Shown: positions 220-63,764, counted from the stretch's first letter. The stretch: DNA of 64,000 bases from an uncultured Candidatus Saccharibacteria bacterium (GCA_964426555.1 CAYRQJ010000004.1:19109-83108); one strand, 5' to 3'. The notes: a model not told the origin generated them from the letters alone. Made by a program: numbers and translations.

Positions 220-933
220 TTAGTTAGCGTCTTTTTCTTCTTGTTTAATTTGAGCTGCTTTTTTTGCATCCAGTAACATTTGAGCCTTCATTTTTAGGAT
301 TTCAGGAACAGCTTTCTCTATTTCTTCAGTAGTCTTAAAGCCCGTATACAATTTTTCGTTCATTACCAATGCCGGCAATTTTGTGTCTTCAACTTTAAAG
401 ATTTTTATTAAAGACTGCAATGCGGTTAAATCCAAATTATAGTCAAAAGAATATATACGAACTTCAGGATAATTGTTGCGTAGTTCGGTAAGCACAGCAG
501 ATTGCTTTATACATTCACTACAATTTTCAGCTGTAGTATAAAAGTAAAATATTGGGACTACGGCTTCTCCGCATTTTGCTTTTATCTTTTGCATTAAAAG
601 ATAGTCTTTGATTTGTAGTAACGAATAGTAACGTTTTAATTCTGTGACTTCTTCTTTGTTTTTTATATTAGATTCACTGTATGCAATCTTTGCTGCCAAG
701 TCATTTAAAGTATCTGACAATGTATTTGCTGCTACATCTTTACAAGACAATTCTTGCAACAATTGAAACTGGGTCTCAGAAGACATAATGTCTATACCTA
801 TAGAATCTTGGATAGATTTTATATTTTCTAATTTTCGATTTGAAAGAAAAGAAGAAAGCCCAAGTGTAGTTATAAATAATGCCAAAGTTATAAGGAAAAC
901 CACAAAGTATCTTTTAGTGTCTGTTTTTTGCAT
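220..933 (-). CDS. membrane-anchored thioredoxin-like protein (CxxC: NCSEC)
   Basis: ORF 237 aa; N-terminal hydrophobic helix (FVVFLITLALFITTLGL), CSEC redox-type motif in C-terminal half; start codon abuts IR element. Confidence 0.6.
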   Translation of the reverse strand: MQKTDTKRYFVVFLITLALFITTLGLSSFLSNRKLENIKSIQDSIGIDIMSSETQFQLLQELSCKDVAANTLSDTLNDLAAKIAYSESNIKNKEEVTELKRYYSLLQIKDYLLMQKIKAKCGEAVVPIFYFYTTAENCSECIKQSAVLTELRNNYPEVRIYSFDYNLDLTALQSLIKIFKVEDTKLPALVMNEKLYTGFKTTEEIEKAVPEILKMKAQMLLDAKKAAQIKQEEKDAN

Positions 934-1051
934 CCCGTTAGAAGCAGATCGCGATCAATTCACGATTTTGCTTTATTACATTTATAATTTTTGTTTGTTT
1001 TAAATTCATACATTTACACATATTTACATTGCGATCGCGGCTTCTAACGGG
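934..1051. repeat. 117-bp IR-bounded element copy 1 (TIR CCCGTTAGAAGCAGATCGCGATC ... GATCGCGGCTTCTAACGGG), abutting start codon of 220..933
   Basis: Perfect 11-12 bp terminal inverted repeat, about 19 bp imperfect; AT-rich interior about 80% identical to copy at 35195-35310; CAT of the gene at 931-933 immediately precedes the element. Confidence 0.8.
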
Positions 1052-1075
1052 ATTGCATATTTCTATATCCTAACA

Positions 1076-5271: not shown

Positions 5272-5398
5272 ATCCCATTAGAAATAAGAAATCAAAGATT
5301 TCTGTATTTGATTATCTATTAAAATTAAATCGATTATATTCATCTATTATACTAAATTAAACTATTAAACTGAACAATTTCTAAACGGGACATGTATA

Positions 5399-15931: not shown

Positions 15932-16003
15932 GTGTGCATATTATCAGTTTATATGGGACTAGTCAAGTGGCTTAAAATAAGTTAGTCTTAGTGTATAAGC
16001 CTG

Positions 16004-16120
16004 TCCCGTTAGAAGTTCTGCTGTTTATCTTGGGAAGGTATATAAAATAAAATTTAAATTTGATTACAGTTATTAATTAAAAAAGTACAGAAATCAAAGG
16101 ATTTCTTACTTCTAACGGGA
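16004..16120. repeat. 117-bp IR-bounded element copy 2 (TCCCGTTAGAAG ... CTTCTAACGGGA), right arm ends in the A of the rnr ATG
   Basis: 12-bp perfect terminal inverted repeat identical to copies at 934 and 35195; AT-rich interior diverged; lies in divergent rpsP/rnr intergenic region. Confidence 0.75.
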
Positions 16121-18108
16121 TGAGAAAAAAAAATACTTTTAATAAAAAACAAGAACCCCAAAATAAACTTCGAAACCAAAACGACAGAAACAAAGCTAAT
16201 AGAAATAAAGACAATAATAAAAATTTACCAACTGGTAAATTTTTAACCGGTGTTATTCGAACTAGTAAGTCTGGAAATGGGTTTATAGACTTTAACGAAA
16301 ATGAATCAGTAATAGTACCCAAAGGTGAATTAAGCACAGCTATTAATGGTGACACTGTGCGTATAGAGCTATTACCAAAAAGACGTGACAAACCCGGTGA
16401 CGCTGGAACAGTAGTAGAAATAATAAAACGTGGCACAACTCATATTGCCGGAACAATTGATTGTGAGGGTACTACATTTTATTTAAAACCAATGAAGTCT
16501 AAATTCCCTTTTTTGGTTTATATTACTCCGGGTCATTTAAATGGGGCTACATGTGGCAGTGCTGCATTTGTAAAAATAACAAATTGGGTTAGTGATATTC
16601 CTGGAAACGTAACTGGTGAAGTAACCAAAGTTTTTGGGACCCGAGGTGAGCACGAAACCGATATGGCTATGATACTGGCCGAATCACTGCAAGATTCTGA
16701 ATTTACAAAAGATTTGTTAGACGAAGTACGAAAATTTAAAGATGTAAATGCAGAAAGTGAATTAAAAAATGGCCGTCGAGATTTTCGTGGAATAACAACT
16801 TTTACTATTGACCCAGAGAGAGCTCAGGATTTTGATGATGCATTGTCGATAGAAGAAAATGCTGACGGTACATATACCATTGGTATCCATATTGCGGATG
16901 TGTCTAACTATATAATAGAAAATAGTAATTTAGATATAGAAAGTTTTCGTCGTGGGACATCAATATATCTTGTAGACCGCTGTATCCCAATGTTACCGGA
17001 AAGATTGTCTAACGACTTGTGTAGCTTGCGTGAAGGCGTACCAAGACTAACCATGAGTACTGTAGTTAAAATACAATCTGATGGCCGTATATTAGAACAT
17101 TGGGTAGGTACAGGTATAATAGAATCTAACAAAAGATTTACATATGGTGATGTAGATAAAATCTTAGAAGACAAAGCCGGACTATATTATAAAGAGCTAG
17201 ACATATTAATGAACTTAGCTGAGATACTGGAAAAAGGCCGCGTAGCCCGTGGTGCGTTGGTATTTAACCGAGATGAAATAAGATTTATATTAGACCCTGC
17301 AGGCAAACCTATAGACATTGTACGTGAGCACAGTAGCCCGTCTCACCTACTAATAGAAAGCTTTATGTTGTTAGCTAACAACATAACTGCCCAAATGATA
17401 GAAGATTATAACAATGGTGAAGGTAAAAAACGCGGCATGTACCGTGTACATGGCAAACCCAACGAAACTGCAATTTTTGATTTGGTAATTTTTGCAAAAC
17501 AATGCGGTATTCGTACTCCGCAAACATTGGAAAAACCTTTGGACATTATCAAACACATTATGAAAAAATCTGTAGGTAATGACATGGAATCTATTCTTAA
17601 CGATATGATAATTCGTGCACAAGCCAAAGCCCATTATAGTGAAGTAAACATGGGTCACTTTGGATTGGCATTATTGTCTTACAATCATTTTACATCCCCT
17701 ATTCGACGATACCCAGATTTGGTAGTACATAGACTGATAAAAAATATAATGGCCGGGAAAGAATTATATTACAGTAAAGCTGAACTACATGGTATTGCTG
17801 AGCATAGTAGTGAAAGAGAAGAAAAAGCTACCGAAGCCGAACGTGCAAGTATTCGCTATAAACAAATTGAATTTTTAGAAAATTCTGTTGGTACTGTACG
17901 TGTAGGACGACTAGTTGGTATGACTGATACTGTAATAAAAATAATTGATGACGAAACTATGGCAATGGTTCACTGTAACCAGTCTAAATATCGTTTTACA
18001 TTAGGACAAAAAGTAGAATACACATTGGACAAAGCCGATAGACTGCAAGATGAATTAAGTGGTGTAGTGAATAAGCCCGTAGAAGTAGTAGAAAAAGAAA
18101 TAAAATAA
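16120..18108 (+). CDS. rnr: ribonuclease R / RNase II-family exoribonuclease (RNB domain) with basic N-terminal tail
   Basis: RNB motifs DFRGITTFTIDPERAQDFDDALSIE, IHIADVSNY; C-terminal S1-like region; N-terminal KKNTFNKKQ...NRNK basic stretch. Confidence 0.9.
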   Translation: MRKKNTFNKKQEPQNKLRNQNDRNKANRNKDNNKNLPTGKFLTGVIRTSKSGNGFIDFNENESVIVPKGELSTAINGDTVRIELLPKRRDKPGDAGTVVEIIKRGTTHIAGTIDCEGTTFYLKPMKSKFPFLVYITPGHLNGATCGSAAFVKITNWVSDIPGNVTGEVTKVFGTRGEHETDMAMILAESLQDSEFTKDLLDEVRKFKDVNAESELKNGRRDFRGITTFTIDPERAQDFDDALSIEENADGTYTIGIHIADVSNYIIENSNLDIESFRRGTSIYLVDRCIPMLPERLSNDLCSLREGVPRLTMSTVVKIQSDGRILEHWVGTGIIESNKRFTYGDVDKILEDKAGLYYKELDILMNLAEILEKGRVARGALVFNRDEIRFILDPAGKPIDIVREHSSPSHLLIESFMLLANNITAQMIEDYNNGEGKKRGMYRVHGKPNETAIFDLVIFAKQCGIRTPQTLEKPLDIIKHIMKKSVGNDMESILNDMIIRAQAKAHYSEVNMGHFGLALLSYNHFTSPIRRYPDLVVHRLIKNIMAGKELYYSKAELHGIAEHSSEREEKATEAERASIRYKQIEFLENSVGTVRVGRLVGMTDTVIKIIDDETMAMVHCNQSKYRFTLGQKVEYTLDKADRLQDELSGVVNKPVEVVEKEIK

Positions 18109-27941: not shown

Positions 27942-28637
27942 TTAATCTAACCATTTTTTCTTTTCTAATGCGGCACGGGCGGCGGCTTGCTCGGCTTCTT
28001 GTTTACTGTGGCCTTTACCTTCGGCAATACGGTCTGCGCCAAAAAACACTCCAACAGTAAAATGCTTGTCATGGTCTGGACCAGCTTCGTGCAGGACTTT
28101 GTAAGACGGAGTCACAGAATGATGTTCTTGAGATTTTTCTTGAATTAAAGATTTTGCATCACGCCACAACTTTTTCTTTACTATTTCGTCCAGTCTTGGC
28201 AGTAATGTAGTATGGATAAATTTTTCAGCATTTGCGTAACCATTGTCTTCAAAAATTGCACCTACTACTGCTTCATAAGTATTGGCTAATATATATGTAC
28301 GGGCTTTACCAATGTCTCTTGTTTCTCCTTTGGATAACAACAAATATTCACCAATATTCATAGCAATAGCAACTTCGCCAATAATGTTGGCATTTACCAA
28401 TGCGCTACGATATGCGGTTAGCTCCCCTTCGGCACAATTGGGATATGTTTTATATAAAAAATCTGTAACAACTAATTCTAAAACTGCATCACCTAGAAAT
28501 TCTAATCTTTCATTGTGAGGTAAACCCAGTTTTGCATTTTCGTTTAAATATGAACGATGAATAAACGCAGATGTAAGTATATCTTTGTTTTTAAATTTTA
28601 TGCCAATTTCTTTTTGGAATTTTTCAAAATCTGCCAT
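27942..28637 (-). CDS. rnc: ribonuclease III
   Basis: ERLEFLGDAVLELVV signature, C-terminal dsRBD; 2 nt after upstream stop. Confidence 0.95.
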   Translation of the reverse strand: MADFEKFQKEIGIKFKNKDILTSAFIHRSYLNENAKLGLPHNERLEFLGDAVLELVVTDFLYKTYPNCAEGELTAYRSALVNANIIGEVAIAMNIGEYLLLSKGETRDIGKARTYILANTYEAVVGAIFEDNGYANAEKFIHTTLLPRLDEIVKKKLWRDAKSLIQEKSQEHHSVTPSYKVLHEAGPDHDKHFTVGVFFGADRIAEGKGHSKQEAEQAAARAALEKKKWLD

Positions 28638-31706: not shown

Positions 31707-33116
31707 TAACTTCATAACCATCATTGTGTTTGTTGACCCGGGTGTACCAAATGGAACACCAGCAGTTAGTATAATACTGTCCCCTTTTTTAACCATTTTA
31801 TTTTTTAATAAAATTTGAGAAATTCCAGAACTGGCGCTAGTTATACCTTTGTATGTTTCAGTAACTATAGGCATTACTCCATAAGAAAGCATAGTTTGAC
31901 GAGCTACTTCTACGTGTGTAGTAGCTGCAACAATAATTTGTACAGGTCTGTGTCTTGAAATAATTTTTGAAGTAAAACCAGATTCAGTCAACGCAATTAT
32001 TAATTTAGCTTTTACATCTTCAGCCACATGAACAAGAGCAGAAGAAAGACTGTCTACTAAATCACCTTGTTTAACTTGAATTCTTTTATGCGTTTTTATT
32101 TCTTCTTCTACACGCAAGGCAGTTTTAGACATTATTTGTACAGCTAGAGTTGGGTATTCGCCAACTGCAGTTTCTTCGCTAAGCATTAATGCATCAGTAC
32201 CATCATAAATTGCATTTGCAATATCTGAGACTTCAGCACGAGTAGGTACAGGTGTACGAACCATGCTTTCTAGCATTTGAGTAGCGGTAATTACTGGTTT
32301 ACCAACTGTGTTACATTTATTAATAATTTTCTTTTGAATATATGGAACATTCTCAGCCCCAACTTCAATAGCTAAATCACCCCGGGCAACCATAATAGCG
32401 TCAGAATTTTCAATAATATTATCAATATTTAAAACAGCTTCTGGGGTTTCAATTTTAGCAATAATTTTTGCTTTTGATTTATGTTTAATTAAATATTTTC
32501 TTAAATCATTTATGTCTTTACTGTTACGAATAAATGATAGTGCAAAATAATCTACTCCATTTTTTATACCAAATAAAACATCTTTTAAATCTTTAGCTGT
32601 TAGTGCACTAATAGACAAATTTGCATTTGGCATATTTACACCACGTCTAGATTTTATTTCTCCACCAACAACTATTTTGGTTTCGATTTCTTTTGAATTT
32701 AATATTTTTGTAACCACTAAACTTTTTTTACCATCATCAAGCATAATAACATTACCCACAGATAAATCTTTTGCAATTTGTGGGTAATTTATATAAACTA
32801 TTTTTTCGTTACCCAAAATTTTATTTGTAGTTAGTATAAATTTTTGACCTTTTACTAATGTTATTTTGTCATTTATAAATTCCCCTATTCTTATTTTAGG
32901 TCCACAAAGATCCATAATTACACCAAGATATACTTTGTTATTATGTTCAAATTCGTTTCGTAATTTAATTGTTTTTTCGTGAGTTGTGTAGTCACCATGG
33001 CTCATGTTTAGTCTTAAAAACGCAACACCATTTTGGTGAAATTTATTAAATAAATCTATCGATTGAGAAGCTGGACCGATGGTTGTAATAATTTTTGTTT
33101 TTTGAAAAGTTTTCAT
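31704..33116 (-). CDS. pyk: pyruvate kinase
   Basis: KTKIITTIGPAS N-terminus, barrel and C-terminal domains; 470 aa. Confidence 0.9.
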   Translation of the reverse strand: MKTFQKTKIITTIGPASQSIDLFNKFHQNGVAFLRLNMSHGDYTTHEKTIKLRNEFEHNNKVYLGVIMDLCGPKIRIGEFINDKITLVKGQKFILTTNKILGNEKIVYINYPQIAKDLSVGNVIMLDDGKKSLVVTKILNSKEIETKIVVGGEIKSRRGVNMPNANLSISALTAKDLKDVLFGIKNGVDYFALSFIRNSKDINDLRKYLIKHKSKAKIIAKIETPEAVLNIDNIIENSDAIMVARGDLAIEVGAENVPYIQKKIINKCNTVGKPVITATQMLESMVRTPVPTRAEVSDIANAIYDGTDALMLSEETAVGEYPTLAVQIMSKTALRVEEEIKTHKRIQVKQGDLVDSLSSALVHVAEDVKAKLIIALTESGFTSKIISRHRPVQIIVAATTHVEVARQTMLSYGVMPIVTETYKGITSASSGISQILLKNKMVKKGDSIILTAGVPFGTPGSTNTMMVMKL

Positions 33117-35194
33117 TAGATATCTAGATTTGCGTATTTGGCATTGGTTTGAATAAAAGATTTTCTTGGGGCAACTTCGCTACCCATTAACATATCAAAT
33201 ATATTGTCAGCTGCTTCAGCATCGTCTACTTGGACTTGCTTAAGAATTCTGCGAGCAGGGTCCATTGTTGTTTCCCATAGTTCTTCAGAATTCATTTCTC
33301 CGAGACCTTTATAACGTTGAATATGGAATTTTGTAGCGGCTTTTTTCTTTGTTTCTTCAGACTCTTCGCCTTCTAATTCTACTACTTCGTCACTATCTTC
33401 AGATTCTATAACTACAGCATCTGGAACTTTGCCAACAACAGCGTCTCGTTCTTCGTCTGAATATGCATACCAAACTTCTTTACCTTTTTTAATTTTGAAA
33501 AGTGGTGGTTGAGCAATGTAAATAAATCCCCCGTCAATTAGCGGACGGAAATATCTATAGAACAATGTCAGAATTAGTGTACGAATGTGTGCACCATCCA
33601 CGTCGGCATCGGTTGCTATGATTATTTTATGGTAGCGTAATTTTGAAATATCAAAAGTATCACCAATAGCACAACCCATTGCAACAACTAAATTTTTAAT
33701 TTGTTCACTGGCTAACATTTTATCCAGTCGTGCTCTTTCAATATTTAGAATCTTTCCACGCAGTGGCAAAATTGCTTGAGTACGACGGTCACGTCCCATT
33801 TTTGCAGTACCACCCGCAGAATCTCCCTCTACAATAAATATTTCAGATTCTTCAGCAGATTTTGTTTGACAGTCAGCAAGCTTACCTGGCAATGTCATGC
33901 CTTCTAATGCTCCTTTACGAAGCACAGAATCTTTTGCAGCTTTAGCGGCTTTACGTGCACGCATAGCCAGCAGTGATTTATTGATTATAGCTTTAGCTTC
34001 ATCAGGATTTTCTTCAAAGAAACTGTTTAATGCGTCACCAAATACAGTGTTAACTGCACCCTGAGCTTCAGTAGAACCCAATTTACCTTTGGTTTGGCCT
34101 TCAAATTGGATTTCTGGCATCTTGATAGACACCACCGCAACAAGACCTTCTAGTACGTCATCTCCTGTAAAACCACCGTCAGCTTCTTTTGCAAGACCAG
34201 CTTTTTTAGCATAGGAATTTATAATACGAGTTAAGGCAGTTTTGAAACCAGTAACATGAGTTCCGTATTCGGGGTTATTTATATTGTTAGCAAAAGCAAC
34301 AATTCTAGTAGACACATCATCAACATAACGAAATACTACTTCTACGGCTACATTATCAATTTCTCTTTCAATATGAAAAATAGAAGAATGAATTGGTTTT
34401 TGATATTCAGTATAATGCTCCACTAATGAACGCAATCCCCCTTCGAAATAATAAGTATGACTTGGTAATTCTAAATTTAAATCTTTAAACCAAAAGACAT
34501 CATCTATATTTGTTTTTTTGCCAGACAAAACATCAGCCCCCATTTCACGAGCGTCAATTGTAGTAATGCGTAAACCTTTTACAAGGTAAGCTTGCTGACG
34601 AAAATGATTTACAATAGTTGTTAAACTAAAATTTGTTGTTTCTTTAAAAATTTCTGCGTCAGGTTGAAAAGTAATAATTGTTCCGCGAAGTTTTGATTTT
34701 TCAACTTGTTTTACATTGGCTTTTTTAATACCTTTTGAATATTCTTGAACATATTTACCACCTTCACGATGTACTACTGCCTGAGTATATACAGACAATG
34801 CATTTACCACAGACGCACCCACACCGTGCAGACCTCCGGAAACTTTATATCCAGATTCATCTCCACCAAATTTACCACCAGCATGCAGTGTAGTCATTAC
34901 AGTTTCCAGTGCAGAAACTTTTGTTTTAGAATGAATTCCTACTGGAATACCACGACCATTGTCGGCAACACGAATACGGTTACCAGGTAGTAGTACTACT
35001 TCGATATTATTACATTCACCGGCCATGGCTTCGTCACGAGAGTTGTCAAAAATTTCCCATACAAGGTGGTGTAGACCTTCGGGGCCAGTAGAACCAATGT
35101 ACATTCCGGGACGGCGACGAACTGGTTCTAATCCTTCTAGAACTGAAATTTCATCAGCTCCATAGTTCTTTTTTGATGTGTTTTTTTCTGCCAT
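33116..35194 (-). CDS. gyrB: DNA gyrase subunit B
   Basis: GHKL ATPase GLHHLVWEIFDNSRDEAMAG, TOPRIM EGDSAGG, LILTLFYRY; stop overlaps pyk start by 1 nt. Confidence 0.95.
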   Translation of the reverse strand: MAEKNTSKKNYGADEISVLEGLEPVRRRPGMYIGSTGPEGLHHLVWEIFDNSRDEAMAGECNNIEVVLLPGNRIRVADNGRGIPVGIHSKTKVSALETVMTTLHAGGKFGGDESGYKVSGGLHGVGASVVNALSVYTQAVVHREGGKYVQEYSKGIKKANVKQVEKSKLRGTIITFQPDAEIFKETTNFSLTTIVNHFRQQAYLVKGLRITTIDAREMGADVLSGKKTNIDDVFWFKDLNLELPSHTYYFEGGLRSLVEHYTEYQKPIHSSIFHIEREIDNVAVEVVFRYVDDVSTRIVAFANNINNPEYGTHVTGFKTALTRIINSYAKKAGLAKEADGGFTGDDVLEGLVAVVSIKMPEIQFEGQTKGKLGSTEAQGAVNTVFGDALNSFFEENPDEAKAIINKSLLAMRARKAAKAAKDSVLRKGALEGMTLPGKLADCQTKSAEESEIFIVEGDSAGGTAKMGRDRRTQAILPLRGKILNIERARLDKMLASEQIKNLVVAMGCAIGDTFDISKLRYHKIIIATDADVDGAHIRTLILTLFYRYFRPLIDGGFIYIAQPPLFKIKKGKEVWYAYSDEERDAVVGKVPDAVVIESEDSDEVVELEGEESEETKKKAATKFHIQRYKGLGEMNSEELWETTMDPARRILKQVQVDDAEAADNIFDMLMGSEVAPRKSFIQTNAKYANLDI

Positions 35195-35310
35195 CCCGTT
35201 AGAAGCAGATCGCGATTAAAACGCGTTCTTGCTTTATTATATTTATAATTTTATCGGTATTTAAATTCATGTTTATATTATGTATTATCGTGATCGCGGC
35301 TTCTAACCGG
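35195..35310. repeat. 116-bp IR-bounded element copy 3, abutting gyrB start codon
   Basis: CCCGTTAGAAGCAGATCGCGAT ... GATCGCGGCTTCTAACCGG inverted termini; interior about 80% identical to copy 1; internal TTTAAA-18-TATAAT on the gene strand. Confidence 0.8.
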
Positions 35311-35344
35311 ACCATGTATACATAAAGTATACCATATACAAAAA

Positions 35345-35375
35345 CTAAATAAAACCCTATTTTGCAAGGGTTTTA
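35345..35375 (-). terminator. rho-independent terminator after the 1310-aa fibre-like gene
   Basis: Minus strand AAACCCTTGCAAAATAGGGTTT hairpin followed by TATTTAGTTTTT. Confidence 0.65.
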
Positions 35376-35389
35376 TTGGTTAATTAGAC

Positions 35390-38300
35390 TTATATTACAG
35401 GCTCTGGGGCTGGTTCAGGATCTGGTGTTGGTGCTGGATCAGGGTCAGGTGTAGGAGCTGGATCGGGCGTTGGAGTTGAGTCTGGTGTTGGGTCTGGAGT
35501 AGGCGTTGGATCTGGTGTTGGAGATAGATCAGGTGTTGGATTTGATGCAGGAGATGGTGTTATTCCACTTTGATTTACCATTTGTAAGAATTGCTCTTCG
35601 TTAACACAGACACTGCCAACACACAATTCTTTTGTTTGAACTTTATCTGCATTTATTAATTTAGTAAAGATTACTTCTATATTATTCCCCACATCTGCCA
35701 AGAATATCTTTATCTTATTTGCTAAACTATTTTCTTTTGTTGTATCAAGTGAAGATAAATCTGTAACTTTTAAATTAAGTTCTTGAATAGCATTTAGTGC
35801 AATCATTTGTAATTCAAGATTATATGAAACTGCATAGTATCCATTTTTTTCTTTAACTAAATCAGGGAAAACTTGTGCCATTTCTTGAGCGATTAAACCA
35901 ACTTGTCTTCCTGATACATAACGTAGTGTTCCACCCAAGCTTTCTATGTCTTCATTCCATTCAAATGATACTGGGCGAAGTTGCATAACTTTTTCTAAAG
36001 ATCCAGTTAGTGAAGTAATATTATGTTTTAATCTTTCGTCAGATGTACATGTCCCAGCAACTTGAGCGCCGGCTTCTCGGAAACAGTCATCAGTATTAAT
36101 ATCGGCTACAACGTCTAGACCGTAGTCGGGAGTAGTATCTCCAATACCGACTTTACCATCACTAATAATTGTCATTCTATCAGTACCTGTTGTGGTTGTG
36201 GTATTAGCCGCAGTATAAAAAGTAATTGTGGTTACAGCGTTTGTAAGTGAACTACCACCACCAATACCAAAATTAGTTACGGCACTACTTGATGTGTAAT
36301 TAAACAATGCTACTGGCTCTTCGGCATTTGTATAATGAGGACCAACGATACGGGCATTTTTATCAGTAACGTTAGTTCTTGTATTTAAAGTATTGTCAGC
36401 ACCCAGCATCATAGTTATACCACCATTACTAATATCTAATGGATATGAAGGAGTTGCGGTAAGAATACCTAGACGATTATTTGTATCATCCCAGAAGAAG
36501 TTTGAATTGTCTTGAGAAATTAAACCGCCTGTCCCAGTAAAAGGAACTGAGCCTGATGTTAATGTAGAAAATGTAATATTCCCAGATGATGTTATGCCAG
36601 TAGCGGCTGCTATTGCACCACTGGAATTGACTTGAAATAAATCACCATCACCAACAGTAAACTTTGCTGCAGGAGACGCGTCCCCTATACCAATATTCCC
36701 AGTAGACAATGTTGTACCTGTACCATCTATTCCAGTACCAAATATTAAGTTACCAATAGTCATCGTATTTGTAGATGTAGCCGTTGGAGCATCAATGTCG
36801 TAGCCGATGACAATGTTATATGAACCAGTAGTAATATTATTACCAGCTTGGTAACCAAAAAGAGAGTTACCATCTGCACCAGTAGCAAATAATCTTGTGG
36901 TATTATGTCCAACCGCAGTATTTCCACTTACTGTTGTATCCGCAACTGTTGCAACCCATGCATGTCCACCTATAACCGTATTATATGAGCCGAGATAGTT
37001 AGCCGTAAGTGCGTAAGTACCCAATGCGATGTTATAAGTTCCAGTACTTGTATTATTCCCTGAAGAATAACCTAGGGATGCATTGTTAGTTCCAGTTGTA
37101 ACACCAGAAAGTGCATATTCCCCAACACCACTATTGTAGCTTCCGGTTGATAAATTAAACAACGATTGCTGACCAACAGCAGTATTGTCGCTTCCTGTAG
37201 TATTGTAATACATACTTGCTTTACCCAACGCAGTATTTGCTTTCCCTGTTGTATTTGCAGCCATAGTATCTGCACCAAATGCAACATTTGAATGACCTGT
37301 GGTTAATGCAGACATTGTATTTTTACCAACAGCACTATTATAGCTTCCTTCCCATACTAATGTAGCAGTTGAGCCTATGGTAAAGTTTCCGGAACTTTCT
37401 CCAACGAAAGTATTTCCCCCCGAAGTTGTCACTGCTCCATTATTCCCATAGTTAAAATCATGGATAAATCTATTTCCATCTTTATAAATAATTCCGTATT
37501 GTGCAGCAAAACTTGTTGCTGGCATTCGGAAGTTTTTTGTAATTTCAAGTTGTTCATTTGGTGTAGCTATACCTATACCAATGTTACCAGTAGACAACGT
37601 AGCATTGACCCCATCAATACCTGTTCCAAAAATAAGATTACCGATATTTAAAGTATTATCCTGAGTATAGTCTTGCGGTTCAATATCGTAGCCAATCATT
37701 ATGTTATGGTCTGCTGAAGACCAGCCAAGACCTGCGTTTTTACCAATAAATATATTGTTACTACCAGAGAAAGCCCCGCCTCCACCAGCAGATTGTCCTA
37801 AAATTGTATTGCCTGAACCAGAAGCATGAGAAGCAGCACTATCTCCAATACCTATATTGTCTGAACCGGTAGAATTACCAAGAGCGCCACTACCGATCGC
37901 AACACCGCTACCACCAGTGGCATCCTGAAGAGCTCCATATCCTATTGCAATAGCTCCGCTACCATCATAATTCTCTAATGCACCATGACCTATTGCGATA
38001 GAATAAGCTGCACCAGTTCCATTTTTTAACGCGTCAACACCTATTGCAACATTAGACTCACCATAATCATTGCTATATAAAGTACGATAACCAATAGCCA
38101 CATTATTATAACCCGAATCATTTACATTAAAAGCTTGATAACCAAAAATAGTATTTGTATTATCATTACTTGGTCCACGCCCAAGTCGTAAACCATTTAT
38201 TAATGCTTCTCCGTTTACATCTAATTTTGCTAATGGAGTCGCAGTACCAATACCAATACTTCCTGTTGAAACCGTTGTGCCTGTACCGTCGATTCCTGTA

Positions 38301-39322
38301 CCAAAAATAAGATTACCAATAGATAGTTGGTTATCACCACCAGCTGTTGGTAAATCAATATCGTAGCCAATAATAATATTATTGTCAGCACCAGTAGTTA
38401 AATTATTTGCGGCTTGGTAACCAATAAAAATATTATTTGCAAATACATCACCACCTTCATTTGCATTAGTACCAGCTCTGGCACCCAAAACAACATTATA
38501 TCCACCAGAAGTGTTACTATATAATCCTCTATTTCCAAAAATAGTATTATAACTACCGGTATTAAAAGGTGCAGAAGAACTACCAACCGCAGTATTGTAA
38601 CTACCGCTAATATTGTAAAGTAAAGACAAACTTCCAACACCAACATTGGCTTGTCCTGTTGTGTTGTTGTATAAAGCACCGTTACCAGCAACAGCTGTAT
38701 TATCTACTCCGGTTGTATTATTTTTTAAAGCGTTATATCCAATACCCGCATTTGAATATCCTGTGGTTACACTATTTAAAGCATTTTTACCAAATCCAGA
38801 ATTATAGCTTCCTTGCCAAGAACTAGTAGCCGTAGAACCCATTGTTAAATTACCAGCACTTTCACCAACAAAAGTACTTGACCCCTCAGTTGTCACTGTT
38901 CCATTGTTTCCATAAGTAAAATTATGAATGAACGTATTTGCCCCTTTGTAAATTATTCCGTATTGTGCAGCAAAACTTGTATCTGGTATTCGGAAGTTTT
39001 TTGTAATTTCTAATTGTTGATTTGGCGTATTCGTCCCTATACCTAATCTATTATTTGTATCATCCCAAAAGAAGTTTGTATTATCTTGTGTTAATGTAGA
39101 ACCATCAGAAAAAGCTATAGAGCCAGTTGTAAGAGTTGGTAGAATTGATACATAACAGTTAGCATCACCAGGTGCACAAGTAGGATCAAGCATAGCGTCA
39201 GATGGTATATATGGTAAACCAAAAGCTACTCCAGTACCAAAAATACTAAATATCACTGTGGCAATAATGAATTGTTTATTGTATTTAAGCCACTTTATCA
39301 TAACTATAATCTTGTCCCACAA
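35390..39322 (-). CDS. giant repetitive cell-surface fibre-like protein (1310 aa) with C-terminal intramolecular-chaperone (Peptidase_S74-like) domain and Pro/Thr-rich tail
   Basis: N-terminal signal-anchor identical to paralog; arrays of about 14-15 aa NTA[VI]G..[AS]L.[NS]N repeats (beta-helix/fibre-like); C-terminal TSDERLKHNI...LRPVSFEWNED...VGLIAQEMAQVFPDLV; ends TPTPDPTPD... Confidence 0.85.
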   Translation of the reverse strand: MWDKIIVMIKWLKYNKQFIIATVIFSIFGTGVAFGLPYIPSDAMLDPTCAPGDANCYVSILPTLTTGSIAFSDGSTLTQDNTNFFWDDTNNRLGIGTNTPNQQLEITKNFRIPDTSFAAQYGIIYKGANTFIHNFTYGNNGTVTTEGSSTFVGESAGNLTMGSTATSSWQGSYNSGFGKNALNSVTTGYSNAGIGYNALKNNTTGVDNTAVAGNGALYNNTTGQANVGVGSLSLLYNISGSYNTAVGSSSAPFNTGSYNTIFGNRGLYSNTSGGYNVVLGARAGTNANEGGDVFANNIFIGYQAANNLTTGADNNIIIGYDIDLPTAGGDNQLSIGNLIFGTGIDGTGTTVSTGSIGIGTATPLAKLDVNGEALINGLRLGRGPSNDNTNTIFGYQAFNVNDSGYNNVAIGYRTLYSNDYGESNVAIGVDALKNGTGAAYSIAIGHGALENYDGSGAIAIGYGALQDATGGSGVAIGSGALGNSTGSDNIGIGDSAASHASGSGNTILGQSAGGGGAFSGSNNIFIGKNAGLGWSSADHNIMIGYDIEPQDYTQDNTLNIGNLIFGTGIDGVNATLSTGNIGIGIATPNEQLEITKNFRMPATSFAAQYGIIYKDGNRFIHDFNYGNNGAVTTSGGNTFVGESSGNFTIGSTATLVWEGSYNSAVGKNTMSALTTGHSNVAFGADTMAANTTGKANTALGKASMYYNTTGSDNTAVGQQSLFNLSTGSYNSGVGEYALSGVTTGTNNASLGYSSGNNTSTGTYNIALGTYALTANYLGSYNTVIGGHAWVATVADTTVSGNTAVGHNTTRLFATGADGNSLFGYQAGNNITTGSYNIVIGYDIDAPTATSTNTMTIGNLIFGTGIDGTGTTLSTGNIGIGDASPAAKFTVGDGDLFQVNSSGAIAAATGITSSGNITFSTLTSGSVPFTGTGGLISQDNSNFFWDDTNNRLGILTATPSYPLDISNGGITMMLGADNTLNTRTNVTDKNARIVGPHYTNAEEPVALFNYTSSSAVTNFGIGGGSSLTNAVTTITFYTAANTTTTTGTDRMTIISDGKVGIGDTTPDYGLDVVADINTDDCFREAGAQVAGTCTSDERLKHNITSLTGSLEKVMQLRPVSFEWNEDIESLGGTLRYVSGRQVGLIAQEMAQVFPDLVKEKNGYYAVSYNLELQMIALNAIQELNLKVTDLSSLDTTKENSLANKIKIFLADVGNNIEVIFTKLINADKVQTKELCVGSVCVNEEQFLQMVNQSGITPSPASNPTPDLSPTPDPTPTPDPTPDSTPTPDPAPTPDPDPAPTPDPEPAPEPVI

Positions 39323-39431: not shown

Positions 39432-42400
39432 TTATTCGGTTGTTGTTTCAGTATTAATTACTGGGTCTTCGTTAACTGTTTGGGTTGGTATTTCAGGAAT
39501 AGGTGGTGTTTCAACAGTTGAATTATCAGTATTTTCTTCAATATTTTGGTTCTCTTGTGTAGTATCTGTATTTGGTACTGGGTCAGGTGTTGGGGTTGGT
39601 TCAGGAGTTGAATCAGGAGTTGGTGTTACGTTTTGTGATTGTAATAGCTGTTGTAATTCTTGTTTTGTAATACAAACATCATCAATACAAAGTTTTTTAG
39701 TGTAAACTTCGTCAACAAAAATTGATTGAATTCCGTTCCCTACATCACTCAAGAATATTTTTATACGACTAGCTAAACTATTTTCTTTTGCGGGGTCAAG
39801 AGAATTTAAATCGGTAATTTTTAAATCTAAGTCTTGAATACTTTTAACAATTAATGGAGTTAGTTGAGAATAAGAAACTTTCCAATACTCATCTGGGTTA
39901 GACGGAATGATAACAGCATCAGGGTATGCATTGTACAATTCTTGAGCAACAAAACCATGAACACGAACATTTGGCTCTCGAATATATGAAAAATCTCTTA
40001 CCTTTATATCCATTAAGTTTCTTAGACTTAGACCAGTATCAACAATGTCTTGCTTTAGTCTTTGGTCAGAAGTTGTGGTTAATGTTAGTGTACCGGTTAC
40101 CAAAGACACAGTTCCAACATCACCACCGTCACCATCGTTAAACTGAATCCATTTACCAGCACTAGGAGTGTCTGCTCCGGCTTGATTGACTATACCAAAA
40201 CGGTAAAAATCATTACAATCGATTAAAAAATTTGAAGAATAATCAGCAGCATCCTCAAGAACAGTAAGCCTGTGTGTACCCAAAGTCACACTTCCGATTG
40301 TTGTTTTACCTAGGTTGGTCCAGTTCCCAGCGTCATCTAAATATGCAATAGATGATGAACTAGAATTAAGAGCATGTATGTTTTTTGTTGATGATGTTGC
40401 ACCTTGACCTTTAATCATTAATCTTGTGCTACCTATACCACCATTACTAGTATTACCAATAAAAGCATTACCATTAACATCAAAATCATTAACCGGAGAC
40501 ATTGATACACCAACTCTTCCACCAAAATATGCTGCATAATTATTAGTAGCTCCAGTAGGAACCTCAACATAAAGGCCGTACGCATTTGTTGCACTCGATA
40601 CAGAACTACCTTGTTGAATATACAACCCAATTGAATTTGTTATACTTGCATTTGTACTTTTAATAGGGGCGCCAGCAATAGCCATTGTTGCAGCATTAGT
40701 TATAGTACTTGCCCCCACAAATGAATATGTTGGTTGAGTTATTAATACTTCTCTTTGGGTTGCTATTGCACCTGTTGCCCATTGTCTACCCGCAGTAGTT
40801 AAAGTTAGTGATGGAATCTCAGTTGAGGCTGTTTGATTTGTATTAACAGCACCAGTGTACACAATACCTTTTAATGCACCAGTACTAGTAATAGTCTGAG
40901 CAACCTCAAGTTTGCCAGTGGGTGCAGCTATGCCTATACCAATATTTCCTGTTGATACAGTTGTGCCAGTTCCATCTATTCCAGTACCAAAGATAAGGTT
41001 ACCAATGGATAATTGGCTATCAGTTGTTGCGGATGGTGCATCGATATTATAACCAATTACAATATTTTTAGAACCGGTAGTTAATGCATCACCAGCTTGC
41101 CAACCTAATAAAATATTATAATCACCACTTGTCGCAGCAAGTCCTGAACCATAGCCAATAGATGTATTACCAGTACCCGATGTTGAAGTAAACAAGGCTT
41201 TATAACCAATCCCAATTGATTGATCTGCTGTAGTATTGGTTAATGATTGACTACCAAATACTTGATTACCAATACCCACATTGTCAGTACCGATCGTTTC
41301 AACTGCTGCATGATACCCTAAATAGACGTTATCAGAACTAGTTGTAATTGCTGCACCTGCTAAATATTCACTGGCCATAGCTTCTTGCCCAATTACAACA
41401 TTTCGAAAACCAACAAGTGAATATCCTGCGGCTGAACCCATCAACACATTTCCTCCACTGGTACCACTGGTTGTAATATTGAACCCAGAAGATTCTCCAA
41501 TAGAGATGTTATTACTACTTGTTGAAATATTTCTAAGTGCATCTTTATTTATAGCTACGTTAGAATAACCAGAACTAAGTGGTTGCGCAGCAGCAGCTCC
41601 AATTGCAACATTAAACTGTCCACTAGACAGATTTAACATTGTATTGTCACCAATAGAAATATTTCTATCTCCAGTTGCTGAAGAGTTAAGAGAATTACCA
41701 ATACCGATATTTGAATATGGAGTTACTCCTGTAGATGCAGTTCTGTGAATATACCAGTCACCTGCAACGCTACGAATTCCTGTATCCATAGTTGCTGTTG
41801 TAAATCTTAGTTCAGCGGTAGAAGAAGAGAGTGTGACAGATGCACCAGTTGTACTAACAGCTCCAGTTGAAGTAACTTGGAATTGTGATGTTGATCCAAC
41901 AGAAAACATATTTGTTGGGCTTGTATTCCCACCAATATTTACAAGCCCGCCAGTAGATATTCGCATTCTTTCAACACCAAGTGCTCCATTGTTTGTTCCA
42001 AAAACAATATTTCCACTATAAGTATTAATAACAAAATTAGTTACAGCTCCGCCTATTTGAAAACCAGCTTGACCTGTAGCACCTAAAGACATCTCATTAT
42101 AACCACCACTGGAACCATTTATAAAAAATTTTGCATAGTTTGAACCACTACCACCATTTGCATTGTATAAAGTTAAATCTGGAGTCCCAGTGGTTGATGT
42201 GTTTTCAATTAATATTTTTGTTTGTGTAGCATCGGCGTCTTTAATTAACAAAGCTTCTCCTGGAGCAGTAGCTCCAGTACCTATACCTACACGACCAGTA
42301 TCACGAAAAGTAACAAAAGCAGTACCGTTATCTTTAATTAAGAAATCCCCAGTTGAAGTTAAATCAACAAACGAATCAGTAGAAGTACCAGCAGTTAATG

Positions 42401-45215
42401 AATATATTCCAGATGATGTTATACCAGTCGCAGCTGCTATTGCACCAGATGAATTGACTTGAAATAAATCACCATCACCAACTGTAAACTTTGCTGCAGG
42501 ACTTGCATCACCGATACCCACATTCCCAGTTGAAAGTGTAGTCCCTGTGCCATCTATTCCTGTACCAAAGATTAAGTTACCAATAGACATTTGACCATCT
42601 GTCGTATTGCTTGGTGCGTCAATGTCATAACCAATGACAATATTCTTGTCACCAGTTGTTATTGCATTACCAGCAGCATAACCAATAGCGATGTTGTTTG
42701 CAGCGTCCCCCATACTTTGACCAGCACCAAAACCTATCAAAGTGTTGCCATCAGCAGCTAAATTTAGGCCAGCAATAGTACCAATTATTGTTGAATAATT
42801 AATTGCAGCGGTTGTTTGTCTTGCTGCACCATATCCAATAACTACATTGTCAGCACCAGCTCCATCACGAAGAACGGCTGAACCAATGGCTACGTTTTCA
42901 TTACCCGAACTTGTAAACATTGCTCTGTAACCCATAACTATGTTATCACTATCTCCAGCTAATCCTGATCCGGCTTCATAACCAATAGCAATGTTATCAC
43001 TACCTGTTGTAGAAATACCATTCATGGCACTTGTACCAATAGCAATGTTTTGCGATGCTGTTGTTAATGCATTTAAAGACGATACACCAATACCAATGTT
43101 ATTAGCTCCTTCGGTTACAAGTCTTAAACCACTAATACCCACATTATTACCACCACTTGTTGTGTCTTGTCCTGAATATTGACCAACACCACCTGCGCGA
43201 CCGGCAAAGAAATTGTTTGAGCCTGTTGTTACAGCACTAAATGTTCCCTGGTTTAAAACAGTATTAAGTAATGTTGTATCAAAACGAAGAGCAAATACTC
43301 CACCTATTTTATATCCATTAGTTAATACTCCAGTACTTGATGTGTTAAAGAAACCCGTAGCGCTACTAATCACAGCAGAAGCCCCTGAGCCTGACAATGT
43401 TAGTGCCGCACCAGTTGAATCTAATGTTTTTGCTCCGGCAAAAGTTTGTGTACCTGTTGTAACAACACCACCAAATGAAGCGGAAGCTGGTTCAAGATTT
43501 AAAGTAACCCCAGAAATAGTAGCGCCATTTGAATTTGCTGATGAACCAATAACCCCAATAGTTGTAACACCACCAGATGCTGCTGCCCATGTTAATGTTC
43601 CTGATCCATTATTTGTTAAAACATAACCACTGGCTCCAGCCTGAGATCCGGGCCATGTATAAGTAACATTATTTATTTTTACGATATTCCCAGATGAATC
43701 AACTTGGAATAGGTCTCCATTACCTACGGTTAATAATGAGGCAGGAGTAGTATCCCCAATACCTAAATTACCGGAATTAATTACTCGAATTTTTTCAGTT
43801 AAAGAACCACTAGTTGTTGTTGAGAAAGAAATATATCCAGTATTATTTACTCGGTTTTGGAAATAAAATTGCCCAGCATTAGAAGCTGCAGATTGACTGA
43901 ATCCTCCAACACGATAATTCACAGTTCCTGGCCATGCTCCTTCTCGTAAATCAAGTAATGTTTGATTTGTCCCTGCAACATCTTGCATTACAAATTGAGC
44001 TGCACCACTTGTTGCCCCTGCACGAATAGTCACATCTCCACTGGCTGTCATAACGTCTAATCTTACATTAGGTGATGCAATACCTATACCGATATTTCCA
44101 CTGGAAACTGATGTCCCTGTTCCATCAATACTTGTACCAAAGATTAAGTTACCAATAGATAATTGATTATCACCACTGGCAGTTGGTAAATCAATATCGT
44201 AGCCGATAATAATATTATTACCCGCACCTGATGTTGCATTATTAGCAGCTTGATATCCAATAAAAATATTATTGTCTAAATTACCAGTCCCACCAGTATT
44301 ATAACCAGAATCATATCCCAAGGAAACATTATTACTACCACCAGTATTTGAACGTAATGCATTTAACCCCATTCCAATATTGTAATTACCAGTTGAATTA
44401 TTGTATAAAACATTTCCCCCTATACCAGTATTATATAAACCAGTATTGTTATACAAAGCATTTGTACCGACGGCAGTATTATACCCAGTTGTACTATTTG
44501 AATACAGAGCATTGACCCCAACTGCAGTATTTCCACTACTAGTAGTATTATTTCTTAAGGCATATACACCAAACGCAGCATTAGATACTCCACTACTATT
44601 ATTTTCTAAAGACTGTTTACCAACAGCTGTATTGTCTACACCACCAATATTTGAATATAACGTCCTGTATCCAACAGCAGTACTACCATTCCCTGTATTT
44701 GTATAAAGAGCAGTATATCCAATTGCAGTATTTTGAAGAGCAGAAACTGAACTATATAAAGTCTGATAACCCACGGCAGTATTTTGACTACCATTAGTAT
44801 TTGAATTTAAAGTTTGATAACCCACTGCGGTATTTGTAGCAACACTACCAGCACCAAGACCAACACGAATATTATTTAATAAAACATCAGATCCAGAAAC
44901 TTCAAGTTTATAAGTAGGCGTATTCGTTCCTATCCCTAATCTATCATTTGTATCATCCCAAAAGAAATTTGTATTATCTTGTGTTAATGTAGAACCATCA
45001 GAAAAAGCTATAGACCCGGTAGTAAGCGTTGGTAGAATTGACACATAACAGTTAGCATCACCTGGTGCACATGTAGGATCAAGCATAGCGTCAGATGGTA
45101 TATATGGTAAACCAAAAGCTACTCCAGTACCAAAAATACTAAAGATCACTGTGGCAATAATGAATTGTTTATTGTATCTAAGCCACTTTATCATAACTAT
45201 AATCTTGTCCCACAA
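39432..45215 (-). CDS. giant repetitive cell-surface fibre-like protein (1927 aa), paralog of 35390..39322
   Basis: N-terminal 95 aa identical to paralog except 2 residues; long NTA[VI]G/NN[IV][SA][IL]G repeat arrays; shared 40-aa block NIGIGDASPAAKFTVGDGDLFQVNSSGAIAAATGITSSG; C-terminal TTSDQRLKQDIV...VRDFSYI...HGFVAQELYNAYPDAV chaperone domain; PT/E-rich tail. Confidence 0.85.
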   Translation of the reverse strand: MWDKIIVMIKWLRYNKQFIIATVIFSIFGTGVAFGLPYIPSDAMLDPTCAPGDANCYVSILPTLTTGSIAFSDGSTLTQDNTNFFWDDTNDRLGIGTNTPTYKLEVSGSDVLLNNIRVGLGAGSVATNTAVGYQTLNSNTNGSQNTAVGYQTLYSSVSALQNTAIGYTALYTNTGNGSTAVGYRTLYSNIGGVDNTAVGKQSLENNSSGVSNAAFGVYALRNNTTSSGNTAVGVNALYSNSTTGYNTAVGTNALYNNTGLYNTGIGGNVLYNNSTGNYNIGMGLNALRSNTGGSNNVSLGYDSGYNTGGTGNLDNNIFIGYQAANNATSGAGNNIIIGYDIDLPTASGDNQLSIGNLIFGTSIDGTGTSVSSGNIGIGIASPNVRLDVMTASGDVTIRAGATSGAAQFVMQDVAGTNQTLLDLREGAWPGTVNYRVGGFSQSAASNAGQFYFQNRVNNTGYISFSTTTSGSLTEKIRVINSGNLGIGDTTPASLLTVGNGDLFQVDSSGNIVKINNVTYTWPGSQAGASGYVLTNNGSGTLTWAAASGGVTTIGVIGSSANSNGATISGVTLNLEPASASFGGVVTTGTQTFAGAKTLDSTGAALTLSGSGASAVISSATGFFNTSSTGVLTNGYKIGGVFALRFDTTLLNTVLNQGTFSAVTTGSNNFFAGRAGGVGQYSGQDTTSGGNNVGISGLRLVTEGANNIGIGVSSLNALTTASQNIAIGTSAMNGISTTGSDNIAIGYEAGSGLAGDSDNIVMGYRAMFTSSGNENVAIGSAVLRDGAGADNVVIGYGAARQTTAAINYSTIIGTIAGLNLAADGNTLIGFGAGQSMGDAANNIAIGYAAGNAITTGDKNIVIGYDIDAPSNTTDGQMSIGNLIFGTGIDGTGTTLSTGNVGIGDASPAAKFTVGDGDLFQVNSSGAIAAATGITSSGIYSLTAGTSTDSFVDLTSTGDFLIKDNGTAFVTFRDTGRVGIGTGATAPGEALLIKDADATQTKILIENTSTTGTPDLTLYNANGGSGSNYAKFFINGSSGGYNEMSLGATGQAGFQIGGAVTNFVINTYSGNIVFGTNNGALGVERMRISTGGLVNIGGNTSPTNMFSVGSTSQFQVTSTGAVSTTGASVTLSSSTAELRFTTATMDTGIRSVAGDWYIHRTASTGVTPYSNIGIGNSLNSSATGDRNISIGDNTMLNLSSGQFNVAIGAAAAQPLSSGYSNVAINKDALRNISTSSNNISIGESSGFNITTSGTSGGNVLMGSAAGYSLVGFRNVVIGQEAMASEYLAGAAITTSSDNVYLGYHAAVETIGTDNVGIGNQVFGSQSLTNTTADQSIGIGYKALFTSTSGTGNTSIGYGSGLAATSGDYNILLGWQAGDALTTGSKNIVIGYNIDAPSATTDSQLSIGNLIFGTGIDGTGTTVSTGNIGIGIAAPTGKLEVAQTITSTGALKGIVYTGAVNTNQTASTEIPSLTLTTAGRQWATGAIATQREVLITQPTYSFVGASTITNAATMAIAGAPIKSTNASITNSIGLYIQQGSSVSSATNAYGLYVEVPTGATNNYAAYFGGRVGVSMSPVNDFDVNGNAFIGNTSNGGIGSTRLMIKGQGATSSTKNIHALNSSSSSIAYLDDAGNWTNLGKTTIGSVTLGTHRLTVLEDAADYSSNFLIDCNDFYRFGIVNQAGADTPSAGKWIQFNDGDGGDVGTVSLVTGTLTLTTTSDQRLKQDIVDTGLSLRNLMDIKVRDFSYIREPNVRVHGFVAQELYNAYPDAVIIPSNPDEYWKVSYSQLTPLIVKSIQDLDLKITDLNSLDPAKENSLASRIKIFLSDVGNGIQSIFVDEVYTKKLCIDDVCITKQELQQLLQSQNVTPTPDSTPEPTPTPDPVPNTDTTQENQNIEENTDNSTVETPPIPEIPTQTVNEDPVINTETTTE

Positions 45216-55185: not shown

Positions 55186-55272
55186 GGAGGCGTCGCATAG
55201 TGGTCTAGTGCACTACCTTGGAAAGGTAGCATGGTGTCAAAGCCATCGGAGGTTCAAATCCTCTCGCCTCCT
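55186..55272 (+). tRNA. tRNA-Ser (anticodon GGA), class II with long variable arm
   Basis: GGAGGCG acceptor pairing CGCCTCC; anticodon stem CTACC/GGTAG, loop TTGGAAA; variable arm CATGG...CCATC; T-arm GGAGG-TTCAAAT-CCTCT. Confidence 0.85.
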
Positions 55273-55281
55273 CAAATAAAT

Positions 55282-63646: not shown

Positions 63647-63764
63647 TCTGTTCTCCCGACTACCTACTTTCCCAATTAATAGTATCATCGGCACTACAAT
63701 GTTTCACTGCTCTGTTCGGAATGGGAAGAGGTGGTTCCACTGCGTCAAATCAGGAGAACGGAAA
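63647..63764 (-). rRNA. rrf: 5S ribosomal RNA
   Basis: Minus strand reads ...GTGGAACCACCTCTTCCCATTCCGAACAGAGCAGTGAAAC...GGGAAAGTAGGTAGTCGGGAGAAC, matching conserved 5S helices/loops. Confidence 0.85.

Follow-up and report, generated by a model that had tools for sequence, protein, structure and literature searches.

How can a piece of mobile DNA sit on the first base of an essential gene and leave that gene expressed? The question arises at gyrB in the window, the whole 64,000-nt stretch of DNA analysed here, where a hairpin element ends in the A of the start codon. The initial annotation had described three such elements of about 117 bp with 12-bp perfect terminal inverted repeats (TIRs) and had taken them for a MITE-like or leader cassette supplying promoter and 5' leader to unrelated genes. 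The answer given here is that the element is a mobile hairpin, widespread in Patescibacteria/CPR, which inserts at start codons in unrelated essential genes and leaves the gene intact by restoring the ATG with its last base. For the feature as a whole, that is, MITE-like insertion at start codons together with the expression relay proposed below, we estimate a probability of about three in four.

The organism of the window is a Patescibacterium of the Nomurabacteria/Paceibacterota type. GC content is 34%, and intergenic DNA makes up 2870 nt, or 4.5% of the window. A Shine-Dalgarno (SD) motif is absent before all 44 gene starts listed in the window, so that the lack of one before the element-bearing genes, rightly pointed out in the initial annotation, is not specific to them. 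In many window genes, a -10-like box lies 4-10 nt away from the ATG; together with the missing SD motifs, this suggests that the mRNAs are mostly leaderless or near-leaderless. A 5S rRNA gene (63651-63757), the 3' end of a 23S rRNA gene (63885-64000), a tRNA-Ser(GGA) gene (55186-55273) and a truncated tRNA at the edge (1-50) are ordinary features of the window. Four copies of the element are present, before the gene for a 237-aa protein, rpoD, rnr and gyrB:

220-933, minus strand: 237-aa gene, an ORF without Pfam match
933..1052, minus strand: copy 1, 120 nt, before the 237-aa gene; flanked by ATGCAA at 1053-1058 and 928-933
2325-3251: DsbA-like gene
3910-5271, minus strand: rpoD, the primary sigma factor
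5273..5390, minus strand: copy 4, 118 nt, with variant arms TCCCGTTTAGAAAT / ATTTCTAATGGGA, between the dnaG stop and rpoD
5399-5401: dnaG stop codon, upstream of copy 4
16004..16120, plus strand: copy 2, 117 nt, before rnr; its distal start-codon copy has decayed to CTG (16001-16003)
16120-18108, plus strand: rnr (RNase R), confirmed by Pfam and homologues
33116..35194, minus strand: gyrB, identified by Pfam and homologues
35194..35311, minus strand: copy 3, 118 nt, before gyrB

The 12-mer CTTCTAACGGGA has six occurrences, arranged as three inverted pairs about 95 nt apart (933-944/1041-1052, 16004-16015/16109-16120 and 35194-35205/35300-35311), with one mismatch in the distal arm of the gyrB copy; by simple arithmetic, about 0.008 exact 12-mer matches would be expected by chance in 128 kb, counting both strands. 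The three pairs first described therefore stand, but their number has to be raised by the fourth copy at 5273-5390, and the repeat at gyrB is not perfect. In copies 1-3 the proximal arm, ...CTTCTAACGGG-ATG, opens a long ORF, so the reported fusion to the initiator codon holds for all three; rnr and gyrB were correctly named, but the supposed thioredoxin-like gene is the 237-aa ORF. Two further details could be reproduced: the pairing of copies 1 and 3 extends to about 20 bp, with a 4-nt bulge, and these copies are about 80% identical over their full length. When the putative leaders were folded, three of the four window copies did far better than shuffled sequences (z-scores of -3.9 to -5.9).

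The key to the origin of the element lies just outside its arms. The old start codon and the next one to three bases of that gene are directly repeated beyond the distal arm, giving the general layout ATGAA/TCCCG...CGGG/ATGAA, or likewise with ATGGA or ATGAG. The window repeats are ATGCAA in copy 1 and ATGG in copy 3, and copy 4 has the 4-bp duplication CATG (5391-5394) and TATG (5269-5272). Comparison with orthologous loci in relatives, given here under our L handles with percent identities of the flanking protein, revealed the corresponding empty sites:

gyrB site, L121 and L122 (GyrB 98%) and others (86-89%), empty: terminator-TGATATAAT-N10-ATGGCAG
gyrB site, window, filled: ...TGGTATACT-N10-ATGG[118 nt]ATGGCAG
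rnr site, L128 and L129 (RNase R 96%), empty: ...gtataagtATGAAAA
rnr site, window, filled: ...gtataagcCTG[117 nt]ATGAGAAAA
rpoD site, L132, L133 and L134 (RpoD 92, 89 and 80%), empty: dnaG stop, then 5, 1 and 7 nt, then ATG
rpoD site, window, filled: CATG[118 nt]TATG
237-aa gene site: ATGCAA[120 nt]ATGCAA in the window; an element about 96% identical in L132; empty in L133

Filled and empty alleles differ exactly by the element and one copy of the duplicated bases; the empty gyrB site of L121, for example, has one single ATGG. Each of the four window copies has an empty counterpart with a single ATG in relatives whose flanking protein is 89-98% identical, and homologues of the downstream genes in other genomes often lack the element. 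The check that the initial annotation had suggested on the gyrB and rnr leaders of relatives thus returned presence/absence polymorphism, with the duplication visible at gyrB, and not an ordinary conserved leader. We also considered an IS200/IS605-type insertion without duplication, which was rejected on the grounds that the sibling copies 1 and 3 carry differing flanks that match their own genes. An exceptional divergence of the gyrB promoter (9/24) was likewise not clearly seen, the adjacent end of the upstream gene being only 65-78% identical. Directly beside the rnr insertion, a 39-nt in-frame indel sets the lysine-/asparagine-rich N-terminus of RNase R apart from that of an otherwise 96% identical relative (window 16120-16200 against L128 10001-10090).

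Across the family, when the T...A termini are counted in full, 131 of 211 copies among the matches listed have a duplication of exactly 4 bp, 14 have one of 3 bp and 8 one of 5 bp; the commonest are TGAA, TGGA and TGAG. Insertions away from an ATG also have 4-bp duplications (TAAA, TAAG, TTGA), and a few lie one base upstream of the start (TATG, CATG). Insertion thus makes a staggered duplication of 3-5 bp, usually 4, with A/TGRR at a gene start codon as the preferred target. The final A of the element is followed by the TG that opens the duplication, so that an intact ATG and ORF are rebuilt at the proximal end, while the original ATG and the gene's own initiation signal stay at the distal end. 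Tandem arrays of the form ATGAA-E1-ATGAA-E2-ATGAA, in which the interiors are unrelated to each other, were also encountered. The TIRs, the duplications seen against empty sites, the tandems, the several copies per genome and the lack of any link to a gene family all bear out the MITE-like character first proposed, and the element is very probably a non-autonomous TIR transposon of this kind. In a subfamily with a constant ACTTG (L016, L017, L042 (4811), L057, L086, L088 and L090 (5100)), this pentamer, not the gene's ATGNN, precedes the distal arm; in L088 and L017, CTTG forms the spacer between two tandem elements.

The distribution of the family was examined with the pattern TCCCGTTAGAA-N80-110-TTCTAAYGGGA, which matched at least 120 loci in a set of one genome per species and at least 120 loci in metagenome contigs, so that more than 240 further copies exist outside the window as a lower bound from the two exact-arm scans. 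Almost all matches listed are from Patescibacteria, with a few in MAGs labelled Omnitrophota; those of the genome scan come from Saccharibacteria, many Paceibacteria lineages, Levyibacteriota, and Doudna-, Kerfeld- and Kazan-type MAGs. The viral contigs scanned held zero copies. A genome can carry several copies, such as the four in the 64-kb window and six within 5 kb of L090, and several contigs of one MAG may have them. The L090 group (DAIDBF010000005.1, 2966-7998) consists of six hairpin elements within one ribosomal-protein operon, each on a start codon (S19, L29, S17, L24, S8 and an L6-like gene). Four of these six carry arms of a second family, TCCCGCACCTTTAGAGGAC...GTCCTCTAAAAGTGCGGGA, in the same geometry and with the same ATGAR duplication.

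The element is 102-132 bp long, and its invariant termini TCCCGTTAGAA / TTCTAACGGGA enclose a variable, AT-rich interior and pair into a stem of 13-20 bp. The inverted repeats comprise 11 invariant and 2 covarying bp, positions 12-13 being Watson-Crick paired in 94% of the elements; CGCGRYC...GRYCGCG-RYCT adjoins the arms in about one third. Because the scans required exact arms, part of this conservation stems from the search itself. A further search, which used the ATGNN repeat as its anchor and made no demand on the arms, returned 148 canonical elements and 18 variants, some with compensatory arm changes (GTTAGAG/CTCTAAC, TCACG/CGTGA) and some belonging to other arm families in which only TCCC.../...GGGA is kept. 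Eleven identical arm bases across phylum-level lineages are unusual for transposon ends, exceed what a transposase normally needs for binding, and hint at an additional constraint; the invariance may reflect the stop and start codons embedded in the arm, or a conserved factor acting at the RNA level. Interiors are sometimes unrelated even at orthologous genes (L042 and L118), yet their orientation relative to the gene is strongly biased (37:5 and 42:0, and 38:1 in the replication set). In a GC-rich subfamily found in different Saccharibacteria/Patescibacteria MAGs (L025, L039, L051, L061, L098), the interior has ATCGRATAGGGTTCGG followed by a hairpin, a motif that may be a -10-like TAGGGT or a mere subfamily signature. 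Mini-hairpins of 28-41 nt with the same arms and almost no interior (L104 7695-7735, L210 5484-5511, L215 1247-1275) may be deletion derivatives.

Normally, a non-autonomous element of this kind would be expected to have an autonomous partner with the same termini. Nearly every arm has its partner 60-170 bp away (290 paired), and a search at 170-4000 bp returned one stray 285-bp pair only. The roughly 1.8 Mb checked around the elements contained no autonomous element or transposase with these termini, nor did the 20 window ORFs scanned against Pfam include a transposase domain; the longest ORF within an element is at most 41 codons. Literature searched by sequence and by concept, with incomplete coverage, yielded no prior description.

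Could the hairpin instead be a vertically inherited cis-regulatory leader that hides the start region in the RNA and is recognised by a conserved factor? Arms invariant across phyla in the exact-arm scans, the covariation and compensatory changes in the stem, the strong orientation bias and the favourable folding of three of the four window copies are what such a leader would show. However, its presence differs between strains that are 96-98% identical, the copies have target-site duplications and occur in tandem, the interiors can be unrelated at orthologous genes, and gene-family specificity is absent. Mismatches show no bias of G-U over A-C, hence no signal of sense-strand RNA pairing, and Rfam 15 gave no match either at the window elements (gathering score) or at ten elements in six loci (E<=1). 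As the sole explanation, such a leader is largely refuted, and we regard it as very improbable.

The genes downstream lead to the same transposon reading. Among the matches listed, an ORF of at least 50 codons follows 211 of 254 elements, and in 231 of the 254 the arm's final A serves as the first base of an ATG. This enrichment at start codons is the opposite of what the initial annotation had named as the finding that would overturn its proposal, a motif common across the genome with no preference for starts. The 117 downstream proteins of the first set of listed matches fall into 155 Pfam families with a largest cluster of 4, and include T2SS-F, SSB, SecG, topoisomerases, tRNA synthetases, ClpP and ribosomal proteins. 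Such diversity rules out a regulon leader, and the wide range of lineages further argues against a lineage-specific repeat. The preference for starts also exceeds what the target sequence alone predicts, since the window offers 52 intergenic TGRR sites against 16 ATGRR start codons, while about 90% of insertions are at start codons. Either the insertion machinery targets starts, perhaps through the transcription bubble of a leaderless promoter, or nearly all other insertions are lethal in genomes as compact as these.

The remaining part of the question, namely how the gene is expressed behind the insertion, is best followed at gyrB, where the relevant features, all on the minus strand, are:

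35194..35205: proximal arm CTTCTAACGGGA; its final A (35194) is the A of the gyrB ATG
35199..35315: upstream ORF (38 codons and a stop) that starts at the distal ATG, crosses the element and ends at the proximal-arm TAA
35300..35311: distal arm TCCGGTTAGAAG, one mismatch to the consensus TCCCGTTAGAAG
35312..35315: distal ATGG, the old gyrB start codon and left half of the duplication (right half 35191-35194)
35326..35334: extended -10 box TGGTATACT, read from the sequence, separated from the distal ATG by 10 nt
35348..35377: intrinsic terminator of the upstream 1310-aa gene, conserved in relatives

The terminator lies outside the element and borders the insertion site. Beyond it are two giant paralogous genes (35390-39322 and 39432-45215, minus strand; 1310 and 1927 aa), which share near-identical 40-nt upstream regions (TGGTATAAT...) and TTG starts. 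Large genes at the same position in relatives match Peptidase_S74, and their proline-/glutamate-rich C-terminal ends vary strongly between strains.

The initial annotation had proposed that the element supplies a promoter, that is, an outward-facing promoter within the cassette from which the gene is transcribed. Hexamer pairs do occur in the interiors: the TTTAAA-18-TATAAT arrangement of the gyrB copy was recovered by our promoter scan, and TAGTATAAT is visible in copy 4. In addition, rnr must be expressed although copy 2 has no distal ATG. Yet -10-like hexamers are as frequent antisense as sense (112 vs 106 on the two strands), and the opposite strand of the gyrB copy gives equally good promoter-like matches; this lack of strand bias rules out an internal promoter as a family feature. 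Copies within ribosomal-protein operons, moreover, need no new promoter. What is found instead is a native signal at the distal end. A TANNNT peak 6-7 nt before the distal ATG occurs in 63 of 190 copies, against about 6 for each other offset, and is also present in genomes with at least 47% GC; this spacing is the geometry of a putative leaderless promoter. An SD motif precedes the distal ATG in 18 of 190 copies (L010, for example), and other distal ATGs follow the stop codon of the preceding gene, as at rpoD and in the ribosomal operon. With a -10 box, an SD or coupling at the distal ATG, the old start keeps its native initiation signal. At gyrB, TGGTATACT occupies the position of the native promoter, for which relatives have TGnTATAAT-N10-ATGG, and it probably serves as one. 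Taken together, the lack of strand bias and the retained native -10 box indicate that transcription probably begins at the gene's own promoter and takes in the whole element as a leader, and the promoter cassette becomes unlikely. The initial annotation had allowed a structured leader only if transcription starts upstream of the distal repeat; that much probably holds.

A transcribed leader that begins with the old start codon would place a reading frame in front of the gene. Stops make up 5.6% of codons in frame with the distal ATG, against 8.1% and 8.0% in the other frames. In 93 elements, the distal-ATG frame is open through the interior in 30, the other frames in 12 and 10, and shuffles gave 10.1 +/- 2.9 with a maximum of 19; weighting by cluster left the contrast in place (23.9 vs 9.5 and 9.5). 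The result was replicated in 122 new elements, with 34 open against 14 and 8 and shuffles at 9.5 +/- 2.8. A stop-free distal-ATG frame is seen in about 37% of copies where about 12% is expected. The openness depends on the phase:

phase ending at the arm TAA (UUC-UAA-CGGG-AUG): open in 43/77
phase ending at the TGA of AUGA: open in 17/50
phase in frame with the gene: open in 3/36 (0/19 and 3/17)

Element lengths that are multiples of three are favoured as well (57:34:24 and 45:26:25). An in-frame N-terminal extension of the gene product is excluded, the phase shared with the gene being closed in 33 of 36 copies. In 60 of 173 copies with a distal ATG, far more than chance would give, the upstream frame ends at the TAA (-7) or at the TGA of ATGA (+1), and the upstream stop thus lies within a few nucleotides of the downstream start or overlaps it, as in termination-reinitiation. 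In the gyrB copy, the 38-codon upstream ORF, which is presumably translated, has its TAA 4 nt before the gyrB ATG. The duplicated start codon and the phase-specific open frame, like the spread of the family across Patescibacteria, were absent from the initial annotation.

These statistics suggest a stop-restart relay. The native promoter would transcribe the element, and ribosomes would load at the old ATG and translate into the element, melting the hairpin. They would then terminate at the stop in the proximal arm, in the UUC-UAA-CGGG-AUG context in one phase or at the UGA of AUGA in another, and re-initiate at the rebuilt ATG. Such a relay would make the insertion nearly silent, even in essential genes and within operons. 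We propose it tentatively, from replicated sequence statistics, and rate its chances at somewhat below even. In about 60% of copies a stop closes the upstream frame early, and copy 2, without a distal ATG, indicates that the relay is not the only route to expression. Whether the upstream frame is open does not correlate with a detectable -10 box.

Another use of the duplicated start codon would be ribosome bypass or shunting, of the sort known from T4 gene 60 or the CaMV 35S leader, in which a ribosome loaded at the distal AUG crosses the hairpin without translating it and lands on the matching proximal AUG. The two triplets are indeed identical and are brought together by the foot of a stable hairpin, and some copies have a 4-codon upstream ORF that ends in the distal arm (MQSR*). 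Against it, the enriched long open frames that end at the arm stop point to ordinary translation rather than hopping, the take-off codon is not followed by a stop in most copies, and the matching bases after the ATG are accounted for by the target duplication. We judge bypass extremely improbable.

A third possibility takes place at the RNA level, with a conserved nuclease cutting the hairpin at GGG/AUG and thereby producing leaderless mRNAs from leadered or polycistronic transcripts. In a host without SD motifs and with -10 boxes beside its ATGs, leaderless mRNAs would be well translated. The A of AUG marks the exact end of the stem in the 231 of 254 listed matches mentioned above, the terminal ...GGGA is retained in the other arm families too, consecutive genes inside operons are preceded by elements, and the window carries an RNase III gene (27942-28637, assigned through its orthologue in L128). 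RNase III does not typically cut right at a stem's foot, however, and cleavage leaves both the phase-specific depletion of stops in the distal-ATG frame and the length periodicity unexplained. As a full account, mRNA punctuation of this sort is quite unlikely. It can nevertheless be accommodated beside the relay in a broader view of the element as a transposon family that is translationally transparent or even useful: the family targets start codons, possibly leaderless transcription starts, its terminal repeat gives the A of the ATG together with stops in the other two phases, and ribosomes are relayed, or the foot of the hairpin is cut to yield a leaderless mRNA. This broader view is possible, with odds a little short of even.

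Patescibacteria have tiny, dense genomes, and the element shows how mobile DNA can persist in them by landing on a start codon and rebuilding it. The annotation of hundreds of MAGs is affected, both through falsely long 5' intergenic regions and through a duplicated ATG that can be miscalled as the start, and the insertion polymorphisms can be used as strain-level markers. Natural pairs of filled and empty alleles of gyrB, rpoD, rnr and ribosomal-protein genes lend themselves to tests of leaderless initiation, re-initiation and RNA processing, in a group that has only recently become genetically tractable (PMC10633639). If the relay is true, the 12-nt arm is a compact, portable stop-restart module. 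If the element is a transparent transposon, it represents a new way for selfish DNA to live inside the essential genes and operons of minimal genomes, and gives a phylum-wide handle on translation initiation in SD-less Patescibacteria.

Among known systems, bacterial MITEs that form transcribed hairpins beside genes include Correia/NEMIS in Neisseria, RUP and ERIC (PMC3184786, PMC2229807). Hairpin-forming MITEs such as Correia/NEMIS are the closest known relatives in kind, sharing with the element a size of about 100-150 bp, TIRs that form a long hairpin, a target-site duplication, the lack of a transposase gene and many copies per genome; these MITEs are also co-transcribed with their neighbours. 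Correia elements have a 26-bp TIR and a TA duplication, whereas the present element has TCCCGTTAGAA as its termini and a 4-bp duplication, mostly TGAA, which sets it outside that family. Unlike Correia/NEMIS, it lies in about 90% of cases exactly on a start codon, whose ATG its last base completes, has stops in its arm beside the rebuilt ATG, and keeps the upstream frame open. Its termini are identical across phylum-level lineages, while Correia/NEMIS-type elements are confined to a genus.

Palindromic elements are also found in Rickettsia (RPEs), reportedly described by Ogata et al. in 2000. RPEs are mobile, are tolerated in essential genes of reduced genomes and have a length constrained by the reading frame, so that palindromic mobile DNA in essential genes and a frame-related length constraint are common to both. 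RPEs, though, insert in frame and are translated within the host protein, whereas 33 of 36 copies of the present element are closed in the gene's frame, and the element ends in a stop beside a regenerated start. REPINs of the REPIN-RAYT type resemble the element as hairpins of about 100 nt that are long maintained and could be mobilised in trans by one host enzyme. They make no target duplication and carry a GTAG-type motif; the verified 4-bp duplications separate the element from them. The only Y1_Tnp gene seen, a PF01797 Y1 transposase of the IS200/IS605/RAYT type in L134 (12722-13356), is preceded by a REP-like hairpin, CTCCGCTAGG...CCTAGCGGAG, which is unrelated to the element arms. In integron attC sites, RYYYAAC ... 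GTTRRRY, the AAC and GTT are innermost; the element has the reverse order (GTTAGAA ... TTCTAAC), with four further terminal bp outside, and is not an attC site.

A more distant likeness is to the gap of T4 gene 60 and the mitochondrial 'byp' insertions, mobile insertions in coding regions that have identical flanking triplets and a hairpin and are hopped over; these too are triplet-flanked hairpins neutralised at translation. Matched ATGs are present in the element, but a stop right after the take-off codon is usually absent, and the evidence favours read-through and restart over hopping. The proposed relay itself is closest to termination-reinitiation coupling (AUGA, UAAnnnnAUG), in which the upstream ORF stops at most 7 nt from the start or overlaps it. 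In many copies the upstream ORF is predicted to lie at the 5' end of the transcript, like the leaderless upstream ORFs known, for example, from mycobacteria (PMC4633059). What distinguishes the element from known coupling is that the device is borne by a transposon and created by the insertion itself.
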